A stretch of 62,177 nucleotides of DNA, filler included, from Pseudomonadota bacterium (GCA_043820105.1; 5 parts of 5 records of this genome joined end to end with filler, not necessarily neighbours in it); one strand, 5' to 3'. Positions 22,741 through 46,933 are shown, numbered from the whole stretch's first letter. Numbers and translations: made by a program. Notes: generated from the sequence alone by a model not told the origin.

Positions 22741-25700
22741 TCAATTTGTCAAGTAAGGCTTGATTTTATATTTTGCTAATTTTTTGTTTAAAGTATTCCT
22801 TGTTACGCCTAACATTTCAGCGGTTTTGGATTTATTTCCTTTAGTTTCCTTTATAGCGTTTATAATGGCGATTTTTTCTATTTCATCAAGGCGTTTGCTT
22901 TGGGTAATTTGTTCTATTGTTTCAAATTTTTTATTATACTCAATCAAAGATTCATCAATAATTTCATCATCTGAAAGAACTATTAATTTATTCACCTCAT
23001 TTTCTAATTCGCGAATATTTCCTGGCCAATCATAATTTGAAAAATATTTTAACAACTTTTTTGAAATCTTTTTTGGTTTTTCGCTTTTGTTTATAAAGTG
23101 ATCTACAAGCAATGGAATATCCTCTGTTCTTTCTCTTAATGGCGGTATATTTAATTCGATGGCATTAATTCTGAAATAAAAATCTTGTCTAAACGCTTCA
23201 TTTTTAACAAGTTGGGTCAGATTCCTGTGTGTAGCTGTAATGATTCGAACATCAATTTTTTGAGTTCTATCTGAACCAACTCTTCTTATTTCTTTTTCTT
23301 GTAAGACTCTTAAAAGCTTTTTTTGCATATTTAGTGACATTTCTCCAATTTCATCAAGAAAAAGTGTTCCTCCTTCTGCTTGTTCAAAGATGCCTTTTTT
23401 ATCTCTAATGGCGTCAGTGAAACTTCCTTTTACATATCCAAATAGCTCACTTTCTAAAATTGTTTCTGTAATTGCCCCACAGTTTTCAGCAAAAAACGGT
23501 TTATTTGCTCTAGTGCTTGCATTGTGAATTGCTTTAGCAATAAGCTCTTTTCCGGTTCCACTTTCTCCTGTTATTAGAATTGGGATATCACTATCAATAG
23601 TTTTTTCAATAGTGTCAAAAATAGAAAACATTTTTGGGCTTGTAGTGATAATTTTAGAAAAAACTCTTTTTGGATCTGTTATTTCTAAAGCCTCATTTTC
23701 TTCTTTTTCAAGAGGTTCAAAAGAAAGCTGTGCCTTGATTCCTTCTGGGGCATCTGAGGCTTTCAGCTCATTTGTCTTTGATTTGCCAATTATTGTAGCT
23801 GCAAGCCCTGCAAGAATGTTAATTTTATCTACATTCTTAGTTAGACTGATATCAATTTTTGGATTTTCAATATATAGAATGCCGATTATTTTTTGCTCAA
23901 AAACAATTGGGGTCGCCAAGAAATCTTGAATGTGCTTTATTGAGTCTATGGGATTTTGCTTTATGATTTCTAATATATCTTTTAAGCAAACAGTATTATC
24001 ATCCTGGCAAGCTTGATATATTATAGCTTCAATAAGTTTGGGTGATAATTCCCTTTCTGTTAACTTGTCTATACTTGACGAAACAGATTGCGAAAATCCC
24101 TTTGGGTTTATTAAAATTACGCTAGCATAGCTTCCTTTTCCAAATAAAAGAGCATTGCTTATTATTAGATTTAAGTTATTATCATCTGTTTGATTGGAAG
24201 ATATATTAGTTGTGATTCTCATTATTCTTGCAAGGACTTCACTTTCATCTAATTCTTCATCTGTTATTTTTACTTGATTCATGAAAGAAAAAGCATCTTG
24301 TAGGGTTGGTAAAATCATAAAAGGTAATTTTAATGTTGCTGGTATATATTTTTGAGTGCTTCTAATTTGGCTATTAATTTTTTCATAATAATATTTGTAT
24401 TTTTCTTTATTATTTTTCTTTAAATAATAATTGCCCAGTACTTCATAATATCGAAGTAATATTTGAAAATTCGTATCTTCTGCTTCGAGGTTTTCAATTC
24501 TATTGGCTATTTTTTCTGCACTATCTAAGTCATTGTGTTTAAGGGCTATTTTAAGGGCAATTGTGTTTGATTCAATAATAATTTTTCTGTCTTGATTTGA
24601 TACATTTCTTGCTTCTTCAAGGTAGTCTTCAATTTGATCGAGTGCACCTAGATTAATTTTACATGTCGCGATATTTAATATTGTTATACCAAGCTCAATG
24701 TTTCTACTAACTTTTTTTAATAGCTCACTAGCTTTTTCATAGGATTTAAGTGCATTAAGATAATCATTTTTAAATTGATAAATATCTCCCAGTAATGAGT
24801 AGCAGCTAGCGAGTAAGTGGAAGTTTTTTCTTTGCATTGCGAGGTTTTGTGCTTCTGATGCAAAAAAATGTGCATTTTCCATGTCACCTGTCTCTGAATA
24901 GATTAATCCCAGGTTAAAAAGGGAAATTTCAGCTCCTGAAGGAGACCCAAGATCTTGATAAATTGTGTTTGATTCCTTATATTTTTTTAAGGCATTTAGA
25001 TAGTTTCCCTGTCTTAAATAGCAATTGCCTATGTTTTGAAGCATCTGGGCTTTTCCAAAAATATCTGAAACTTCTTCTGCTTTTTTTAAGGCACTTTCAT
25101 GCCATTGTATAGCAGCTTCAAAATTTTCAAGCTGATAATATGCCAAACCAATATGGTTAAATGCTTTCATAAGGCCAGGCACATCATTGATTTTTTCTGC
25201 TAAATTAAGTGAAACAAGAAATTCATCCTTTGCCTTTTCATAATTTCCTGTATAGAATTCAACAAGACCATTTAAATTGTGAAGAATGCGTTTTTGTCCA
25301 GCACCAACGGCTTGGATTTTTTTTATTGAATCTATAAGCACTTTTGCTTCAGTATATTTTGTTACATTTATAAAGGAAGTTATTTTTAAAAACATAAGAT
25401 CTATTTTTGTTTCTAAATGATCTTCGTACTCTTCAATTTCTTTAATTGTCCTATCAATAAGTTCATTGCCCTCATTTATTTGACCCTTATTAATTTTGAT
25501 TTGGCAAAGATTCTTTTGAAGATTTATTCTCTCTAGGTCTGATTCAATATAATCATTAAGTAGCAGAAAGTTTTTTTCAGCTTTTATAAAGTCTCCAACT
25601 TTTAAATGGAAGTCACTTATTTTTAAGTAACAGTGTTTTTTGATTTTATTTCTTTCATCATAAGCAAGCGTATTAGAAGCCATTAAGATTGTTTCATATA

Positions 25701-27726
25701 AATTAACAGCTTTTTCCCAAAGCCCATTTTGAAAGTAAAAGTTTGCGACCTTGTTGTAGTATTCAATTGCTTTATCATTAATTCCTGCTTGAAGAAAGTG
25801 ATAAGCAATGTTTTCTTGATAGACATTTGAGTGAGTTGGATTTTCTTCAAGTTCCATTGCAAAATGTTTATGAATTTTTCTTGTTTGATTCTTGTCTAAA
25901 AATGTTTTTAAAGGTTCAAATATTTCCTTGTCTTCAATTATATATTCATCTTTTTTGTTTTCTTTAATTAAATTTAAGTCACCTAAGAGTTTAATTCCAT
26001 CAATAATTTCATTTTCATTTATTAGCGGATTATATCTTTTTAAAATGTTCAATATGAGCAGATTAGTTATACTAATATTTGAAGAAGCTATTATATAAAG
26101 GATGAGTCGTTGAATTTGATACAGGGTTTGAATTTTTGTTTTTTTGATTTCAATAAGGCTACTTGGCAGTTCATAATTTATTTTACTATTAAGGCAAATT
26201 GTTTTATTAATAACTTTAAGAATATTTTTGGCTTTTAAGTCTGCTATTAATGTTAATGCATATCCGGGATTACCTTTACTATAACGATTTAGAAACTGTA
26301 TTAACTCATTTGAAACCTTGTAGTTGCTTGCAGTGTCAATTATTTTGTTTTGAGTTTCAATATCTGTTCTTTTTAAATTAATATGTTGGCTTGTACCGCT
26401 TTGTGGAAACCGTTCTTTTATTAGTCTCTTAAATGAATTTATTTTTTCCTTATCTGTATTAAAGGTCAATAGCATGAACATCTTGTTTTCCAAGAGTTCA
26501 AGTTCTTTAAAATAGAGTTTTAAAAATAAATAAGAATCATGTTTAAGAAAATTACAGTTTTCTATAATTACTATTGAATCATTCTGTCTGTGTATTTTAT
26601 TTACATCTGCAACAAGCTTTTTTAAGAAAGCTGACCTTCTTGCATAGGATGAGTCTGTTATTAGGGAACTTTCTTTGTATGAGATTTTTTTATATGAAGA
26701 AATAAAGTTTATAATGTCGTCAATTGGCTCTGCTTCTGAGATTATAAGCCTGTAAACAGGGATCATGTCTTTAGAATTAAGTTTAACGAACTCATCAATC
26801 AGGGTTCTTTTTCCAATTCCAGTTTCACCATTAATAGAAAAAAGACATAGTTTTTTTTCAGAGTTTTTTTGCTGGATATAATTTGTTTGTAATTCATCAA
26901 TTTCTTCATCTCTTCCTGAAAAAGTTGGTTTTGTAAGGACTATTGTATCTTTTATATTATTTAAGGAAAATTTTTCCGCTTCTTTCAATTCCTTTTCAGC
27001 ATATTCTCTTTCAGTTAGTATCTTTAATTTTTCAGATCTTAATTTCAAAATAGAACTGCATTCTTCAGGAATGTATTTTTGAAAACTTTTAAAAATATAG
27101 TTAAAATGGGGTTTTGACAAATGTGTTTGTTTGCTTGTTTCGAAAAGGTAGCGTTTAGCATTTTCTTTTAGTTTGATAAGCTCACTTTCTATTCTTTTTT
27201 TCCAGCTGTTTGAAGCAATGACAAAATATTCAACGGATTTTTCAAGATTTATAGTTACTCTATTTTCTTCAACAGTAATATCTGCTTTTTTTAATTTTGA
27301 AATTTGTTCAATGGAAAGACCAAACAAGATAAATAATAGGAAAACTGATTTTCTGTTATCAGCAATATTTTCAATTTTATTTAAAAAGACACTTATATTG
27401 TCATCTGAAATTGATTCAATTTTATCAACCTTTTTAGTTTTTATCGCTTTAGCAAGATTTTTATAGTTATAAGTAGTTGATAAAAAATTATATAGGCTTT
27501 TTATAGATGAAATACATTGGTTTATTGTTCTTATTGAATAACCCGAATTTTTTATGTTATCTAAAATACTGTTTAAATCTTCGGCTGTTAGGTCTGCAAT
27601 TTCTTTGCTTGGATCCTTGTGCTCAAAGAATACTTCCAGTCTTTTTTTGTATTGCTCAATACTTTTAATGTTTATTTTTTTTGTTTCTAAGAGCCATTTA
27701 AAATATTCATCAAAAATAGGCTTCAT
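22741..27726 (-). CDS. Multidomain sigma54-dependent activator: inactive XerC/D-like domain + STAND NTPase + TPRs + GAF + sigma54 AAA+ + Fis HTH
   Basis: N-terminal integrase SAM-like and catalytic-like fold; FSGRDEE, GETGIGK and GNP STAND motifs; TPR repeats; GAF (TPIVFEQKIIGILYIEN); GESGTGKE, ESELFG-GSFTDA, LFLDEIGEM and WPGNIREL; C-terminal HTH. Confidence 0.88.
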   Translation of the reverse strand: MKPIFDEYFKWLLETKKINIKSIEQYKKRLEVFFEHKDPSKEIADLTAEDLNSILDNIKNSGYSIRTINQCISSIKSLYNFLSTTYNYKNLAKAIKTKKVDKIESISDDNISVFLNKIENIADNRKSVFLLFILFGLSIEQISKLKKADITVEENRVTINLEKSVEYFVIASNSWKKRIESELIKLKENAKRYLFETSKQTHLSKPHFNYIFKSFQKYIPEECSSILKLRSEKLKILTEREYAEKELKEAEKFSLNNIKDTIVLTKPTFSGRDEEIDELQTNYIQQKNSEKKLCLFSINGETGIGKRTLIDEFVKLNSKDMIPVYRLIISEAEPIDDIINFISSYKKISYKESSLITDSSYARRSAFLKKLVADVNKIHRQNDSIVIIENCNFLKHDSYLFLKLYFKELELLENKMFMLLTFNTDKEKINSFKRLIKERFPQSGTSQHINLKRTDIETQNKIIDTASNYKVSNELIQFLNRYSKGNPGYALTLIADLKAKNILKVINKTICLNSKINYELPSSLIEIKKTKIQTLYQIQRLILYIIASSNISITNLLILNILKRYNPLINENEIIDGIKLLGDLNLIKENKKDEYIIEDKEIFEPLKTFLDKNQTRKIHKHFAMELEENPTHSNVYQENIAYHFLQAGINDKAIEYYNKVANFYFQNGLWEKAVNLYETILMASNTLAYDERNKIKKHCYLKISDFHLKVGDFIKAEKNFLLLNDYIESDLERINLQKNLCQIKINKGQINEGNELIDRTIKEIEEYEDHLETKIDLMFLKITSFINVTKYTEAKVLIDSIKKIQAVGAGQKRILHNLNGLVEFYTGNYEKAKDEFLVSLNLAEKINDVPGLMKAFNHIGLAYYQLENFEAAIQWHESALKKAEEVSDIFGKAQMLQNIGNCYLRQGNYLNALKKYKESNTIYQDLGSPSGAEISLFNLGLIYSETGDMENAHFFASEAQNLAMQRKNFHLLASCYSLLGDIYQFKNDYLNALKSYEKASELLKKVSRNIELGITILNIATCKINLGALDQIEDYLEEARNVSNQDRKIIIESNTIALKIALKHNDLDSAEKIANRIENLEAEDTNFQILLRYYEVLGNYYLKKNNKEKYKYYYEKINSQIRSTQKYIPATLKLPFMILPTLQDAFSFMNQVKITDEELDESEVLARIMRITTNISSNQTDDNNLNLIISNALLFGKGSYASVILINPKGFSQSVSSSIDKLTERELSPKLIEAIIYQACQDDNTVCLKDILEIIKQNPIDSIKHIQDFLATPIVFEQKIIGILYIENPKIDISLTKNVDKINILAGLAATIIGKSKTNELKASDAPEGIKAQLSFEPLEKEENEALEITDPKRVFSKIITTSPKMFSIFDTIEKTIDSDIPILITGESGTGKELIAKAIHNASTRANKPFFAENCGAITETILESELFGYVKGSFTDAIRDKKGIFEQAEGGTLFLDEIGEMSLNMQKKLLRVLQEKEIRRVGSDRTQKIDVRIITATHRNLTQLVKNEAFRQDFYFRINAIELNIPPLRERTEDIPLLVDHFINKSEKPKKISKKLLKYFSNYDWPGNIRELENEVNKLIVLSDDEIIDESLIEYNKKFETIEQITQSKRLDEIEKIAIINAIKETKGNKSKTAEMLGVTRNTLNKKLAKYKIKPYLTN

Positions 27727-27990: not shown

Positions 27991-28010
27991 AAGTGAATAA
28001 AGGGGTTGAA

Positions 28011-29369
28011 ATGAAACGAATTGTGAATATTTTATTCTTAATTATTTTAATTTTTATTTTATCTTGTTTTGAACAAGAAAATTCCGATAATTCTGCATCA
28101 GATGATGCAGATAATGAAACTTCAGTTGTGCTAAGCCTGACAGGACAAATCAGTTCGGATTCATTATCCTCAAGATTTTCAGGGATTACAGATGTAAGCT
28201 TTACTGCTCGAAGTGAAATAACCTTACCAGTTGGTGTTCCAACACCAGGTATTATTACAAGAAACGACTTTAAATCAATAAAAAGCAGCTCAAATATTGA
28301 TATAGTAGCTTTAGTATTGGCAACTAATGAGGAAAATGTACCATTAATTGCTTCTCTAGTTTCAGAAGATGGCAGTTTTGAGCTTGAAATTGAAAATGAA
28401 GCGATCTTTAGGCTTTATGTTATTCCTGCGATTGATGAATGTACAAGTCTTGATATATCCTGCTTTATTGATTATGATGTTGTTTCTTTGTATAAAACCA
28501 CAAACAATGAATATGATTTTGCCTTTAATGCAAGTGTCGCTAAATCACTTTCACTTGGTTCTTTAAGTTTTGAAGACTATGATACAGTTGTTTCTCTTGA
28601 TGCGATTGATATTACTAGTGAACCTGAAATTGAAAGCTATGTCACTTTTAAAGATTCAGCAGAAAAAATGATTGCCTATTGGACCTTTAACGAGCAAACA
28701 GGAGCTGCTGTTTATAATAGAAAAGGTGATGTTGATGGCGAAATTCTTGGAGGGGAATGGGCAAGTCTTGATGATATGGAGGCTTATTATTTTGATGGAT
28801 ATGATGATTATGTGGATTTAGGAACAGTTCTTCCTGGTTCAAGTGAAATGACTAATAAAATGACCTTAGTTGCCAAGATCTATCCAATTACAATAGATAG
28901 CGAGCACAGGGCCGCTAATGGTACATATTCTACAATTTTAAGTAAAAAGATTTTTAGGGAAATTAAGGATGAGTCAGCTGAAGATAAATCAAGCTTTTGG
29001 TTTGGCTTAGAGTATAATCAGAATTTAAAATATTCTCTTATTTTAATAGTTGAAACTGAAAATGGAAGAAGCGAATTTATTTCGTCATTAGAAGTAGATC
29101 CTGATAAGTGGTCCTTTGTATCTGCTGTATATGACGCTGGACTTATTAACTTTTATGTTACCAATCAAGAAGATCCAAATCCAACATGTATTTCTTTTGG
29201 ATCCTTGGAAAACATTCAAATTGATGAAACAGTGCCTTTGAGAATAGCAAATAGTCAAAATTATGTTGAATCAACTGAAACCATTGAAAATAATAAGTAT
29301 TTTTATGGTTATATAGATATGGTTAGAATTTATAGTGTAGCAGTTATGGCTGATAATATAGTAGATTAA
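28011..29369 (+). CDS. Lipoprotein with C-terminal LamG/concanavalin A-like domain
   Basis: Lipobox ILSC; AYWTFNE, YFDGYDDYVD, WSFVSAVYD and FYGYIDMVRIY LamG-type motifs; start moved to the ATG at 28011. Confidence 0.8.
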   Translation: MKRIVNILFLIILIFILSCFEQENSDNSASDDADNETSVVLSLTGQISSDSLSSRFSGITDVSFTARSEITLPVGVPTPGIITRNDFKSIKSSSNIDIVALVLATNEENVPLIASLVSEDGSFELEIENEAIFRLYVIPAIDECTSLDISCFIDYDVVSLYKTTNNEYDFAFNASVAKSLSLGSLSFEDYDTVVSLDAIDITSEPEIESYVTFKDSAEKMIAYWTFNEQTGAAVYNRKGDVDGEILGGEWASLDDMEAYYFDGYDDYVDLGTVLPGSSEMTNKMTLVAKIYPITIDSEHRAANGTYSTILSKKIFREIKDESAEDKSSFWFGLEYNQNLKYSLILIVETENGRSEFISSLEVDPDKWSFVSAVYDAGLINFYVTNQEDPNPTCISFGSLENIQIDETVPLRIANSQNYVESTETIENNKYFYGYIDMVRIYSVAVMADNIVD

Positions 29370-29505
29370 GTCTAAACTTCAATTAAATCTTACATTTTTA
29401 ATATAATCAATTCTCACCTGCTTACAAAGTGAACATTTTTAATGAAACAGGATGTTTTGTTTTCGTAACATGCTGAAATTACAGGATATGGAGAAAGTCT
29501 ATTTA

Positions 29506-29521
29506 TGGCACACCAGTTGCA
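29506..29521 (+). promoter_or_regulatory. Sigma54 promoter
   Basis: TGGCAC-ACCAG-TTGCA is a perfect consensus match; IHF-like TAACATGCTGAAA at 29466-29478. Confidence 0.8.
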
Positions 29522-29532
29522 ATAGTAATATA

Positions 29533-29674
29533 TTAGAATTCATCGCGTGGCTTTAAAAAGCTATTATGAAACTTTTAACCTAATTTAATTAGGGGGCATA
29601 CGCGGTGGGTTTCATAGTGTCTGTACCCATATTTAAGGTTGATTGGAAGGCTAAGTTTAGCCTTCCTTTTTTTT
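29533..29674 (+). ncRNA. Candidate sigma54-dependent small RNA (~140 nt)
   Basis: Bounded by the sigma54 promoter and an intrinsic terminator; the only ATG-initiated ORF is 5 codons; several complementary segments. Confidence 0.55.
29645..29674 (+). terminator. Intrinsic terminator
   Basis: GGAAGGCTA-AGTT-TAGCCTTCC followed by T8. Confidence 0.9.
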
Positions 29675-29809
29675 GTCTAAAATCCGGTGCCATAATGAAC
29701 TGATATAGAGGAAAAAAGCACCACATAAATTCAGAAAAAACCATAGCAAAATGACCAAAACTATAATAGAAACAAAGCTTTGACTAGCTTGGACTCTTTT
29801 GGCGCTTTT

Positions 29810-29825
29810 CGGCACGAACCTTGCT
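29810..29825 (+). promoter_or_regulatory. Sigma54 promoter
   Basis: CGGCAC-GAACC-TTGCT, 40 nt upstream of the ATG at 29866. Confidence 0.75.
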
Positions 29826-29865
29826 CTAACTAATTTACTGTTAACGGGGATTGGAAGGAGCCAAA

Positions 29866-31287
29866 ATGAAAAATACAAATCAAAAAGGGCAATTAATTAT
29901 TCAAATTAAATTCTTAGTTGCTTCAATAATTGTTCTTTATTTTTTAATCATAAAAACCATGTTTGCTTTTTTGCTTCCTGATATTGAAGAAAAAGAAGCT
30001 GTTGCTAATATCGCGATTATTTTGGATGTTGATTCAAGGCTTACTCACGCTGAGTTTTTTGAAGAGTTTTTGTTAAAGCTTGTTAATCAGGGTATTGAAG
30101 TTAATGTAGTTAGTAGAGAAGAAAAAGAAGCAGGCGAAAGTCCTATTAACAATGCTGATTATGCAAATTTAAAAGAACTTGAATCGGCGATTTTAGATGA
30201 TGATAAAACTTTGTTTTATGTTGGACTTGATTTGTCAGATGAATTTTCAGTTCTATATTATAAGACTTCATTTCTAGGAAAATTATTAAGTGAAAATATT
30301 TCCAGCTTTTCTGATGAGTGGCCACTTAGCTATAACACTAAAGACAAAAGAATAAGAAGCCTTTCTTCACCTGCCATTGTTGTTAATATTAATAATGCTT
30401 TAATCGTTGATAGTGACAATGAAAATTTAGCTAAAGGTGTTGCTTATCCAATTTATAATGGAATTTTGAAATATTTAAAATTTTTGGAAAATGATTACAA
30501 ATCAAATTTTCCACCTGTTGAAGATATTACTGAAATGAATTCTTCATTGCAAGCTGAAGCTCTTTCTAATCCGGAACAAAAATTTGAAACAGATCTTGTT
30601 TTTCAGCTTCCAACAATTAATGGAGAAACAAGCCAAATTCCACTTGTTTATTCAAATCTCTTAGTAGATCTTTACATAAAAAAATATAATTATACATATT
30701 ACTGTGACATTGAAAAATATCTTGAAGCAGGAAAGTTTGAAGCCTTTGCACCATGCAGACTTCCTATTTCAACTTTTCTATATAAAGTCTCAGGGAAAGA
30801 CGATGAAAGAATGCTTTCTGAATATGTGACAGCTGGTGAATTTGTAAGCACAGCAACAGAAAGGGTTGCCAAAAAAGAGGGCAGAGATGTTTTGATTTAT
30901 GCAACAGGTGGAGTTTTAAGACTTATTGATAACTTAAATCGCCTTGCTGAAAATTTTGGCTATCGCGCACCACGTATTACAAGCGGATTTAGAGATGCCG
31001 GTGGAAATAAAGCAGTTCCAGGAACAAGCTCAAAATCAGGCCACATGGAAGGAAGATGCGTTGATTTTTCATCTTCAAGTGGACTTTATGGACAAGTTGG
31101 AAAAGCCCGATTTATGAATCTCTGGTCTCAAGCAAGAAGCGTTTCAGGTCAAAACAAAAAAGATTATTCAATTTTAATTCATGATGCAGGAACTGGTATG
31201 CATGTTCATACTTGTTCAATTGCAACTCCTTCTTCAGATCCTGAAGCTTATTTTAATTCAGTGTTAAGTAGGGAACAGGGGGCGTAA
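29866..31287 (+). CDS. Exported protein with a degenerate Amidase_3-like domain and a C-terminal peptidase M15 (D-Ala-D-Ala carboxypeptidase-type) domain
   Basis: N-terminal hydrophobic helix; ITSGFR...SGHMEGRCVD...HVH M15 zinc motifs; RSLSSPAIVVN...LAKGVAYPIYNGILKYL resembles the end of an amidase_3 domain; GAAGGAG RBS. Confidence 0.7.
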   Translation: MKNTNQKGQLIIQIKFLVASIIVLYFLIIKTMFAFLLPDIEEKEAVANIAIILDVDSRLTHAEFFEEFLLKLVNQGIEVNVVSREEKEAGESPINNADYANLKELESAILDDDKTLFYVGLDLSDEFSVLYYKTSFLGKLLSENISSFSDEWPLSYNTKDKRIRSLSSPAIVVNINNALIVDSDNENLAKGVAYPIYNGILKYLKFLENDYKSNFPPVEDITEMNSSLQAEALSNPEQKFETDLVFQLPTINGETSQIPLVYSNLLVDLYIKKYNYTYYCDIEKYLEAGKFEAFAPCRLPISTFLYKVSGKDDERMLSEYVTAGEFVSTATERVAKKEGRDVLIYATGGVLRLIDNLNRLAENFGYRAPRITSGFRDAGGNKAVPGTSSKSGHMEGRCVDFSSSSGLYGQVGKARFMNLWSQARSVSGQNKKDYSILIHDAGTGMHVHTCSIATPSSDPEAYFNSVLSREQGA

Positions 31288-40461: not shown

Positions 40462-40477
40462 TGGCACAATACTTGCT
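40462..40477 (+). promoter_or_regulatory. Sigma54 promoter
   Basis: TGGCAC-AATAC-TTGCT is a perfect consensus match; IHF-like TAACAAAATGAAAT about 45 nt upstream. Confidence 0.82.
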
Positions 40478-46917: not shown

Positions 46918-46933
46918 TGGCATGAACTTTGCA
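46918..46933 (+). promoter_or_regulatory. Sigma54 promoter
   Basis: TGGCAT-GAACT-TTGCA, about 50 nt upstream of the ORF. Confidence 0.78.

Follow-up and report, generated by a model that had tools for sequence, protein, structure and literature searches.

The interval 29506-29674 on the plus strand of a 62,177-nt stretch of DNA (the window) from a Pseudomonadota bacterium (GCA_043820105.1) probably encodes an uncatalogued regulatory RNA of about 143 nt. This non-coding RNA would depend on sigma-54 and would be a long paralogue of a class of short RNAs distributed across the genome, a reading that is held with moderate confidence. It draws on motifs, genome-wide motif statistics, paralogy and the absence of a coding frame, all of which are observed here. 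The window consists of several contigs joined by N runs, in which positions 8116-38879 correspond to contig C54, and the source assembly comprises 3.81 Mb in 113 contigs with 32% G+C and a completeness of 93%.

A sigma-54 promoter followed by an intrinsic terminator

The elements that delimit the unit, together with those on either side of it, are the following.

29506-29521 (+): sigma-54 promoter P1, TGGCACACCAGTTGCA, of the form TGGCAC-N5-TTGCA, matching the consensus at 11 of 11 positions with 0 mismatches
29532-29674 (+): predicted non-coding RNA of about 143 nt, with a minimum free energy of -42.9 kcal/mol (z -4.0), no Rfam family and no ATG frame of more than 5 codons
29645-29674 (+): intrinsic terminator, GGAAGGCTA-AGTT-TAGCCTTCC followed by T8, one of 90 strict terminators in 3.8 Mb
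29810-29825 (+): second sigma-54 promoter P2, CGGCACGAACCTTGCT, with 1 mismatch (10/11), 26 nt from the start of an open reading frame (ORF) and serving the next gene
29392-29443 (+): direct repeat of ACATTTTTAAT, with copies at 29392 and 29433, AT-rich, about 115 and about 74 nt upstream of the -24 element

P1 carries its GG element at 29507-08 and its GC element at 29519-20, and the start site predicted from it lies near 29531-29533. The terminator, 124 nt from P1, has a stem-loop at 29645-29666 with 9 bp (5 of them G-C) and a loop of 4, followed by T8 at 29667-29674. The first-pass annotation of this DNA had described a perfect sigma-54 promoter, a strong intrinsic terminator and a separate sigma-54 promoter for the next gene, and all three are present. 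The stand-alone promoter-to-terminator unit without a credible coding frame that it deduced from them is supported. It had also placed an IHF-like site by the promoter, and here no match to WATCAANNNNTTR with one mismatch or fewer was found on either strand of 29370-29531. The ACATTTTTAAT repeat, with its unit of 11 nt, lies upstream of P1 and could conceivably serve as an enhancer.

In the window as a whole there are 6 sigma-54 motif matches with at most one mismatch, compared to 1.62 +/- 1.30 in shuffled sequences, and a count of 6 was reached by 0 of 100 shuffles.

Sigma-54 promoters and terminators across the genome

The genome encodes rpoN, and its product has its nearest named relatives, at no more than 62% identity, in metagenome-assembled genomes of Deltaproteobacteria, Bdellovibrionota and Desulfobacterales. 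The sigma-54 activator domain PF00158 has 33 matches in the genome, 31 of them at E<=1e-27. Scored against the consensus TGGCACN5TTGCW, which has 11 fixed positions, the genome contains 69 perfect motifs, compared to 1.2 expected from composition. Most of these (61/69) are intergenic, in a genome in which the ORF calls span 87% of the sequence and the intergenic share is about 13%, and 45 of the 61 have a same-strand gene within 250 nt downstream. Because the perfect motifs are so largely intergenic and so often lie close upstream of same-strand genes, they appear to be maintained by selection.

Strict intrinsic terminators number 90 in 3.8 Mb. A sigma-54 motif on the same strand, matching at least 9 of 11 positions, lies within 260 nt upstream of 19 of them, compared to 6 of 90 when the downstream side is used as a control. 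Ordinary genes in this genome seem rarely to end in canonical terminators. Perfect motifs and motifs with one mismatch together give 188 intergenic promoters, and 16 of these near-consensus promoters lead, under strict criteria, into a terminator before the next ORF of at least 90 amino acids (aa). Relaxed criteria yield 62 promoter-terminator pairs, 23 of which contain no ORF as long as 90 aa. Since perfect motifs exceed expectation, strict terminators are rare, and 19 of the 90 are linked to sigma-54 motifs, the candidate unit is taken to be non-random, and a pairing of P1 with its terminator by chance is very unlikely.

Sibling short RNAs

Two families of sigma-54 RNAs of 65-75 nt, with 6 and 4 copies, are found elsewhere in the genome and are referred to below as siblings.

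C98:6182-6278(+), C105:142-229(-), C105:447-542(-): group 1, each with a sigma-54 promoter and a terminator
C10:114361-114454(-), C1:16483-16575(-), C90:46304-46399(+): group 1, each with a sigma-54 promoter and a terminator
C10:21361-21458(-), C80:20888-20988(+), C24:8177-8278(+), C90:207221-207310(+): group 2

The group 1 RNAs (C98_6182, C105_214, C105_527, C10_114439, C1_16560 and C90_46304) begin at the 5' end with ATAGTTTCATAATATG(C/T)(T/C)CCCC and share the seed ATAGTTTCATAATATGCTCCCC in all six copies, two of which stand in tandem on C105. Those of group 2 (C10_21443, C80_20888, C24_8177 and C90_207221) have ATAGCTTTTTCATATTCCTCCTCC as their 5' start and seed, and the -24 element of C90_207221 is degenerate. 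An additional sigma-54 RNA of 66 nt, C49_25816, starts with AAGTTTCATGTTCCCATAG and precedes another giant activator gene by about 200 nt.

The 5' ends of the siblings are the reverse complement of a Shine-Dalgarno (SD) sequence, a spacer and ATG AAA. Within each group the seed is near-invariant and the terminator hairpins are unrelated in sequence, as seen in the within-group alignments A2 and A3. Such a combination is the pattern expected under selection for a pairing seed plus any working terminator. Peptides encoded on the opposite strand were considered at these loci and rejected, as 2 of the 6 group 1 copies have no frame starting from the mirrored ATG, and such frames elsewhere vary from 18 to 71 aa and diverge just past the promoter. 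None of 13 sibling or related loci reaches the gathering score of any Rfam family.

Seeds were compared with the start regions of genes at a threshold of <=-20 kcal/mol. Group 1 seeds reach it at 7.6% of the starts of genes with sigma-54 promoters versus 1.5% of other leader-bearing genes, and for group 2 seeds the corresponding values are 21% and 5%. This preference for sigma-54 mRNA starts is a lead and not a result, and stronger SD sequences in sigma-54 genes could explain it. The best predicted targets of group 2 reach -34 and -30 kcal/mol, and those of shuffled seeds reach -28.

A further locus, C104:43166-43400(+), has two tandem sigma-54 motifs. The first leads into an SD+ATG look-alike and a hairpin, and the second into CATAATATCTCCTTC, a near-mirror of that look-alike, and then a terminator, with a 46-aa frame running across both. 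A small-protein mRNA that pairs with itself, or else a pair of RNAs, may be encoded here.

The candidate as a divergent paralogue

The first-pass annotation proposed a candidate novel RNA for the interval. It does not stand as an isolated novelty here, as the promoter extension and the homology to C49_25816 point to a long, divergent member of a genome-wide sigma-54 short-RNA class. Three segments of the RNA bear on this.

29536-29608 (+): extra segment, about 73 nt that the short siblings lack, an insertion in the MAFFT alignment A1, with TTCAT at both ends
29607-29631 (+): seed-like tract, GGGTTTCATAGTGTCTGTACCCATA, with an anti-start-codon CAU and a degenerate C-run, aligned to the 5' seeds of the siblings (A1) and to C49_25816
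29616-29672 (+): 3' module of 57 nt, homologous to C49_25816 by local alignment

P1 is followed by a class-specific extension, ATAGTAATATATTAG. The extension TGCAATAG (TGCA-ATAG-N7-TA(A/T)TAG; TGCAATAG...TTAG) occurs at 7 of the 188 intergenic promoters, the candidate included, and 6 of these 7 belong to short-RNA units. When the candidate is left out, it is found in 5 of 15 short units versus 1 of 172 other promoters (Fisher p ~1e-5).

In alignment A1, which includes the candidate and the siblings, the candidate aligns at the promoter and then again from GTTTCAT (29609) to the terminator, so that about 73 extra nucleotides separate its start site from the seed-like GGGUUUCAU. The 3' module aligns to the body of C49_25816 with a score of 37, compared to 15.3 +/- 2.4 (maximum 28) for shuffled sequences, 0 of 300 of which reach 37. 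C49_25816 comes first among the 89 other terminator units, ahead of a unit that scores 24, and the 95th percentile is 21. With the terminator left out of the comparison, siblings account for 5 of the 7 best non-self matches. From these alignments, the candidate is most likely a divergent, extended paralogue of the siblings, not a sibling proper.

The interval is single copy in the genome. Other resemblances were set aside. After 6 comparisons, the likeness of the 5' part to C75_33379, equalled by 2 of 300 shuffles, is unconvincing, as is that to C102_16508, equalled by 38 of 300. A 28-nt match at C90:157211 falls within a gene and is attributed to chance.

Folding

The first-pass annotation listed three pairings, and all three are present. 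H1 joins 29541-49 with 29599-607 through 9 bp, including 2 G-U pairs (-11.8 kcal/mol), and H2 joins 29565-72 with 29609-16 through 8 bp, extendable to 12 (-11.6 kcal/mol when extended). H3 is a hairpin at 29579-93 with 6 bp and a 3-nt loop (-2.8 kcal/mol). In addition, a small hairpin lies at 29550-29563 within the extra segment. H1 and H2 do cross, as had been noted, and the pseudoknot that they might form is a speculative proposal. Folding with H1 forced gives -25.2 kcal/mol, and with H2 forced -19.2 kcal/mol. The description of the RNA as structured owes most to the terminator, since the whole molecule has a z of -4.0 and the core alone, with a z of -2.25, folds only modestly better than chance.

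Proposed mechanism and weighing of the evidence

Sigma-54 RNA polymerase would initiate near 29532, probably activated by the adjacent 1661-aa enhancer-binding protein, and transcription would end at the intrinsic terminator, at about 29674, so that the non-coding RNA is about 143 nt long. The 3' half of this RNA would be the counterpart of the 66-nt C49_25816 and would run from the seed-like tract, GGGUUUCAU...CCCAUA, through a spacer rich in A/U to the terminator. This C49-type module would have gained about 73 nt that now separate the start site from the seed. By analogy with the anti-SD+AUG 5' ends of the siblings, the RNA would be made when the neighbouring activator is on and would most likely act in trans on translation-initiation regions. 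Transcription, the identity of the activator, base pairing in trans and its targets are all steps that we infer.

Several observations weigh against this reading, and the first of them concern the likeness to the siblings. The seed-like tract has a degenerate C-run and begins internally, about 75 nt beyond the start site, whereas the siblings have a 5' seed. At about 143 nt the RNA is also outside the sibling length of 60-80 nt. A search with nhmmer using the family body profile gave no match to the candidate at E<=10, and the match of R1, a family model of the sibling RNAs, is confined to its promoter part (14.9 bits, E 0.06). With the terminator removed, the core folds at -28.0 kcal/mol, a stability reached by 11 of 500 shuffles and by 4.75% of 113-mers taken at random from the intergenic DNA of the genome. 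In target predictions the duplexes formed by the 5' end and the seed tract are no better than those of shuffled seeds, and no preference is seen for the start regions of the neighbouring genes, which rank between 806 and 4036 of 7913. The regions upstream of P1 and P2 have no common motif of 8 nt or longer, so there is no shared enhancer. In this 93% complete genome CsrA was not found and neither was a canonical Hfq, an Hfq domain match below the cut-off (25.6 bits against 27) lying within a 254-aa frame. Finally, the genes used in the genome-wide counts are crude longest-ORF calls made with no gene finder.

The same side of the balance includes a lack of relatives. A DNA search of 41 genomes returned only chance-level matches of 17-31 nt. 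The phylum sample consists of 4 genomes including the window's own, and pattern and R1 searches of the other three revealed no promoter-linked relative. RpoN loci led to 5 genomes, of which one was G001, already among those of the phylum, and the other four, all delta-type, contained no promoter-linked match to R1. The flanking proteins also have no relatives in the genomes and metagenome contigs searched. No homologue of the kind that the first-pass annotation hoped to collect from related genomes was therefore found outside the window's genome.

Matches that did turn up in these searches were rejected. R1 matches in G001 and G002 have no promoter and look like a shared coding stretch, and one R1 promoter-to-T-run match in the genomes reached through RpoN is an ordinary promoter before a gene. 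The promoter-plus-seed pattern matches only the window's own genome among the 4 of the phylum, and a metagenome scan with it gave 1 match, in GC-rich coding-like DNA that is unrelated.

Alternative explanations

One alternative assigns the terminator to the 3' end of the mRNA of the upstream LamG gene and takes P1 for part of a decayed or silent paralogue copy that makes no discrete functional RNA. It gains from the lack of another terminator for the LamG gene before 29645, from the degenerate and displaced seed of the candidate, and from the single-copy status of the interval. A decaying copy would not, however, be expected to keep a perfect 11/11 promoter with the class-specific extension intact, in a genome where perfect motifs are concentrated in intergenic DNA (61/69) and close upstream of same-strand genes (45/61 within 250 nt), and this explanation is considered unlikely.

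A different function has been considered for the 5' extension, which contains look-alikes of initiation regions. These could soak up the anti-initiation-region RNAs of the sibling class, as a sponge or decoy, or mask the candidate's own seed, and sigma-54 and the giant activator would then tune the sibling network. Positions 29585-29600 (TTAATTAGGGGGCATA) are a 16/17 reverse-complement match to the seed region of C105_214, and 29563-73 (TATTATGAAAC) complements the first 11 bases of the group 1 seed. The duplex with the C105_214 seed reaches -24.0 kcal/mol, which 0 of 300 shuffles equal and which ranks 9 among 7913 windows of translation-initiation regions. Moreover, H2 pairs the internal seed with 29562-74, as self-masking would have it. 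When intramolecular structure is included, however, cofolding is not clearly above shuffles (9/100 as good for C105_214, 4/100 for C98_6182 and 20-61/100 for the others). The order of the two complementary pieces is also incompatible with a single continuous duplex, and eleven partners impose a multiple-testing burden. Both the decoy or self-masking role and the tuning of the network that would follow from it are thus regarded as improbable.

A broader proposal, equally doubtful, is that the genome has a dedicated sigma-54 riboregulatory layer in which the candidate is a composite member, a C49-type module with a 73-nt insert that carries initiation-region mimics. It counts at least 19 sigma-54-driven short RNAs, 10 of them siblings with 5' ends antisense to SD+AUG, and draws on the preference of the sibling seeds for sigma-54 mRNA starts. 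If this were true, the giant activator next door would drive an RNA that titrates, or is titrated by, the siblings.

Independently of that proposal, about one fifth of the genome's strongest terminators belong to predicted sigma-54-driven short RNAs, which would make sigma-54 with its many activators, several of them giant, a major post-transcriptional input in an unstudied delta-type lineage. The candidate itself adds one uncatalogued gene to this set, and it matters less as a single locus than for drawing attention to the class and perhaps to an architecture of sibling decoys.

It is rather improbable that the interval is a cis-acting leader or attenuator, in which P1 transcripts stop at 29674 and signal-dependent read-through into the downstream M15-like gene adds to the output of P2. 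The downstream gene does have the same orientation, and two other short units, C12_77969 and C49_25816, each immediately precede an activator gene of the same strand, in a leader-like position. The downstream gene is, however, served by a sigma-54 promoter of its own, 135 nt beyond the terminator, and the terminator is strong (9 bp and T8). No anti-terminator alternative is evident in the folds, and Rfam gives no riboswitch or leader at threshold.

Coding was the remaining possibility. The single ATG between the start site and the terminator, at 29566 (frame 29566-29583), encodes MKLLT and a stop. The claim that this 5-codon frame is the only ATG ORF is accurate for ATG starts, and it does not hold for frames in general, since there are also two GTG frames, one of 13 aa (29547) and one of 32 aa (29605-29703). 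The longer of these is preceded by an AGGGGG tract at a spacing of 8 nt, and another sigma-54 short unit, C49_19270, has a well-formed 26-aa frame. A small protein is nevertheless highly improbable, as the 32-aa frame crosses the terminator and would find no stop on the terminated RNA, the 13-aa frame has no SD sequence, and Pfam gives no match for the candidate's frames on either strand, including minus-strand frames of 51 and 73 aa that overlap the interval.

The C49 locus with the 26-aa frame, at C49:19045-19285(-), has its sigma-54 promoter just 3' of a giant activator gene, followed by the lysine-rich frame (SD AAAGGAG) and a terminator.

Comparison with known RNAs

Sigma-54-dependent small RNAs are known from few model systems, namely Qrr, GlmY/GlmZ, Pxr and the non-coding RNAs of Desulfovibrio. 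The Vibrio RNAs Qrr1-5 (RF00378) depend on sigma-54 and LuxO, are about 100 nt long, end in an intrinsic terminator and form a set of several siblings that share a seed for translation-initiation regions. The candidate resembles them in its dependence on sigma-54 and an activator, in its intrinsic terminator and in having multiple siblings with a conserved pairing seed, features that are predicted here from sequence. It differs in showing no sequence or covariance-model similarity (no Qrr match at E<=10), in its greater length and internal seed, in a genome where no canonical Hfq was found, and in belonging to an unrelated lineage.

The first-pass annotation did not recognise the sequence as any known family, and this agrees with Rfam, which gives 0 matches at gathering score in the whole window. 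At E<=10 there are 8 matches in 29380-29870, none of them to Qrr, GlmY or GlmZ. The best Rfam alignment to the candidate, at 29605-29676, is to FopS of Bacteroides (RF04319), which is likewise a paralogous family of short RNAs. It covers the UUUCAU, AUUUAAGGUU, the terminator and the U-tail of the candidate and scores 26.3 bits versus a gathering score of 56, so membership was rejected and the match treated as chance. Matches to RF04319 at E<=10 are non-specific, occurring also in 8 of 14 unrelated control genomes, and 0 of its 14 other sub-threshold matches in the genome fall at sibling loci.

The alpha-r14/NfeR1/CcsR 'cuckoo' RNAs (RF02344) resemble the siblings in having anti-SD CCUCC tracts that block ribosome binding. 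The group 2 sibling C10_21443 matches this family (ar14) below threshold through its CCUCC tract, with 32.9 bits versus a gathering score of 58.8. The candidate has no such tract, and its promoter type and architecture differ.

In Desulfovibrio vulgaris Hildenborough, sigma-54-dependent non-coding RNAs are reported to lie beside the genes of the activators that control them (PMC4641369). The setting is similar here, in a delta-type, activator-rich genome with sigma-54 non-coding RNA genes beside activators. The Desulfovibrio RNAs are 4 single genes (PMC4641369), whereas the present genome has at least 19 units, including the 6- and 4-copy sets. In Enterobacteriaceae, GlmY and GlmZ are reported as homologous sigma-54-dependent RNAs, one of which decoys the regulator of its sibling (PMC3045617, PMC4152352). 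They offer a precedent for a decoy reading of the candidate, with the difference that GlmY decoys a protein (RapZ), not an RNA seed, and that the candidate has no sequence similarity to it.

A keyword search of the literature brought up no description of sigma-54 RNAs that occur in several copies and carry anti-SD-plus-AUG seeds at their 5' ends, and the absence of such a paper is not thereby established. The candidate is a credible but unproven addition to the known sort of sigma-54-dependent RNA, with no Rfam family of its own.

Neighbouring genes

The genes on either side of the RNA are as follows.

22741-27726 (-): giant sigma-54 activator (bacterial enhancer-binding protein) of 1661 aa, with PF00158 at 1.1e-70, HTH_8, TPR_12 and Phage_int_SAM_1
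27993-29369 (+): ORF of a LamG/concanavalin-like putative lipoprotein gene, with PF13385 at 1.4e-10
29866-31287 (+): gene of a membrane-anchored protein with a weakly M15 peptidase-like C-terminus, with PF08291 at 6.5e-5

The activator has an N-terminal integrase SAM-like domain followed by AAA_16, TPR, sigma-54 AAA+ and Fis-type helix-turn-helix (HTH) domains, and its AAA_16 region, which precedes the AAA+ and HTH domains, is STAND-type. Because P1 and P2 are the only intergenic sigma-54 motifs within 4.5 kb of its gene, this protein is the obvious candidate regulator, and it is presumed to control both. It is one of nine giant sigma-54 activators of 1119-1986 aa in the genome, the others being on C27, C90 (two), C10, C88, C49, C64 and C108, and most of them have sigma-54 motifs in neighbouring spacers.

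The LamG gene sits between the activator gene and the RNA. Since there is no strong terminator on the plus strand from 29369 to 29645, its mRNA may also end at the terminator of the RNA. The downstream gene has GGAAGGAG just before its ATG at 29866, and its protein has no relatives in the genome or metagenome contig collections.

The 10-mer GATTGGAAGG occurs both at 29641-29650, in the 5' arm of the terminator, and at 29849-29858, in the SD region of the downstream gene, a recurrence that is probably due to SD-like composition. On another contig of the window, near-perfect sigma-54 motifs are found at 40462-40477(+) and 46918-46933(+), the first of which is followed by tandem heptamer repeats of the GTAAGTG type.

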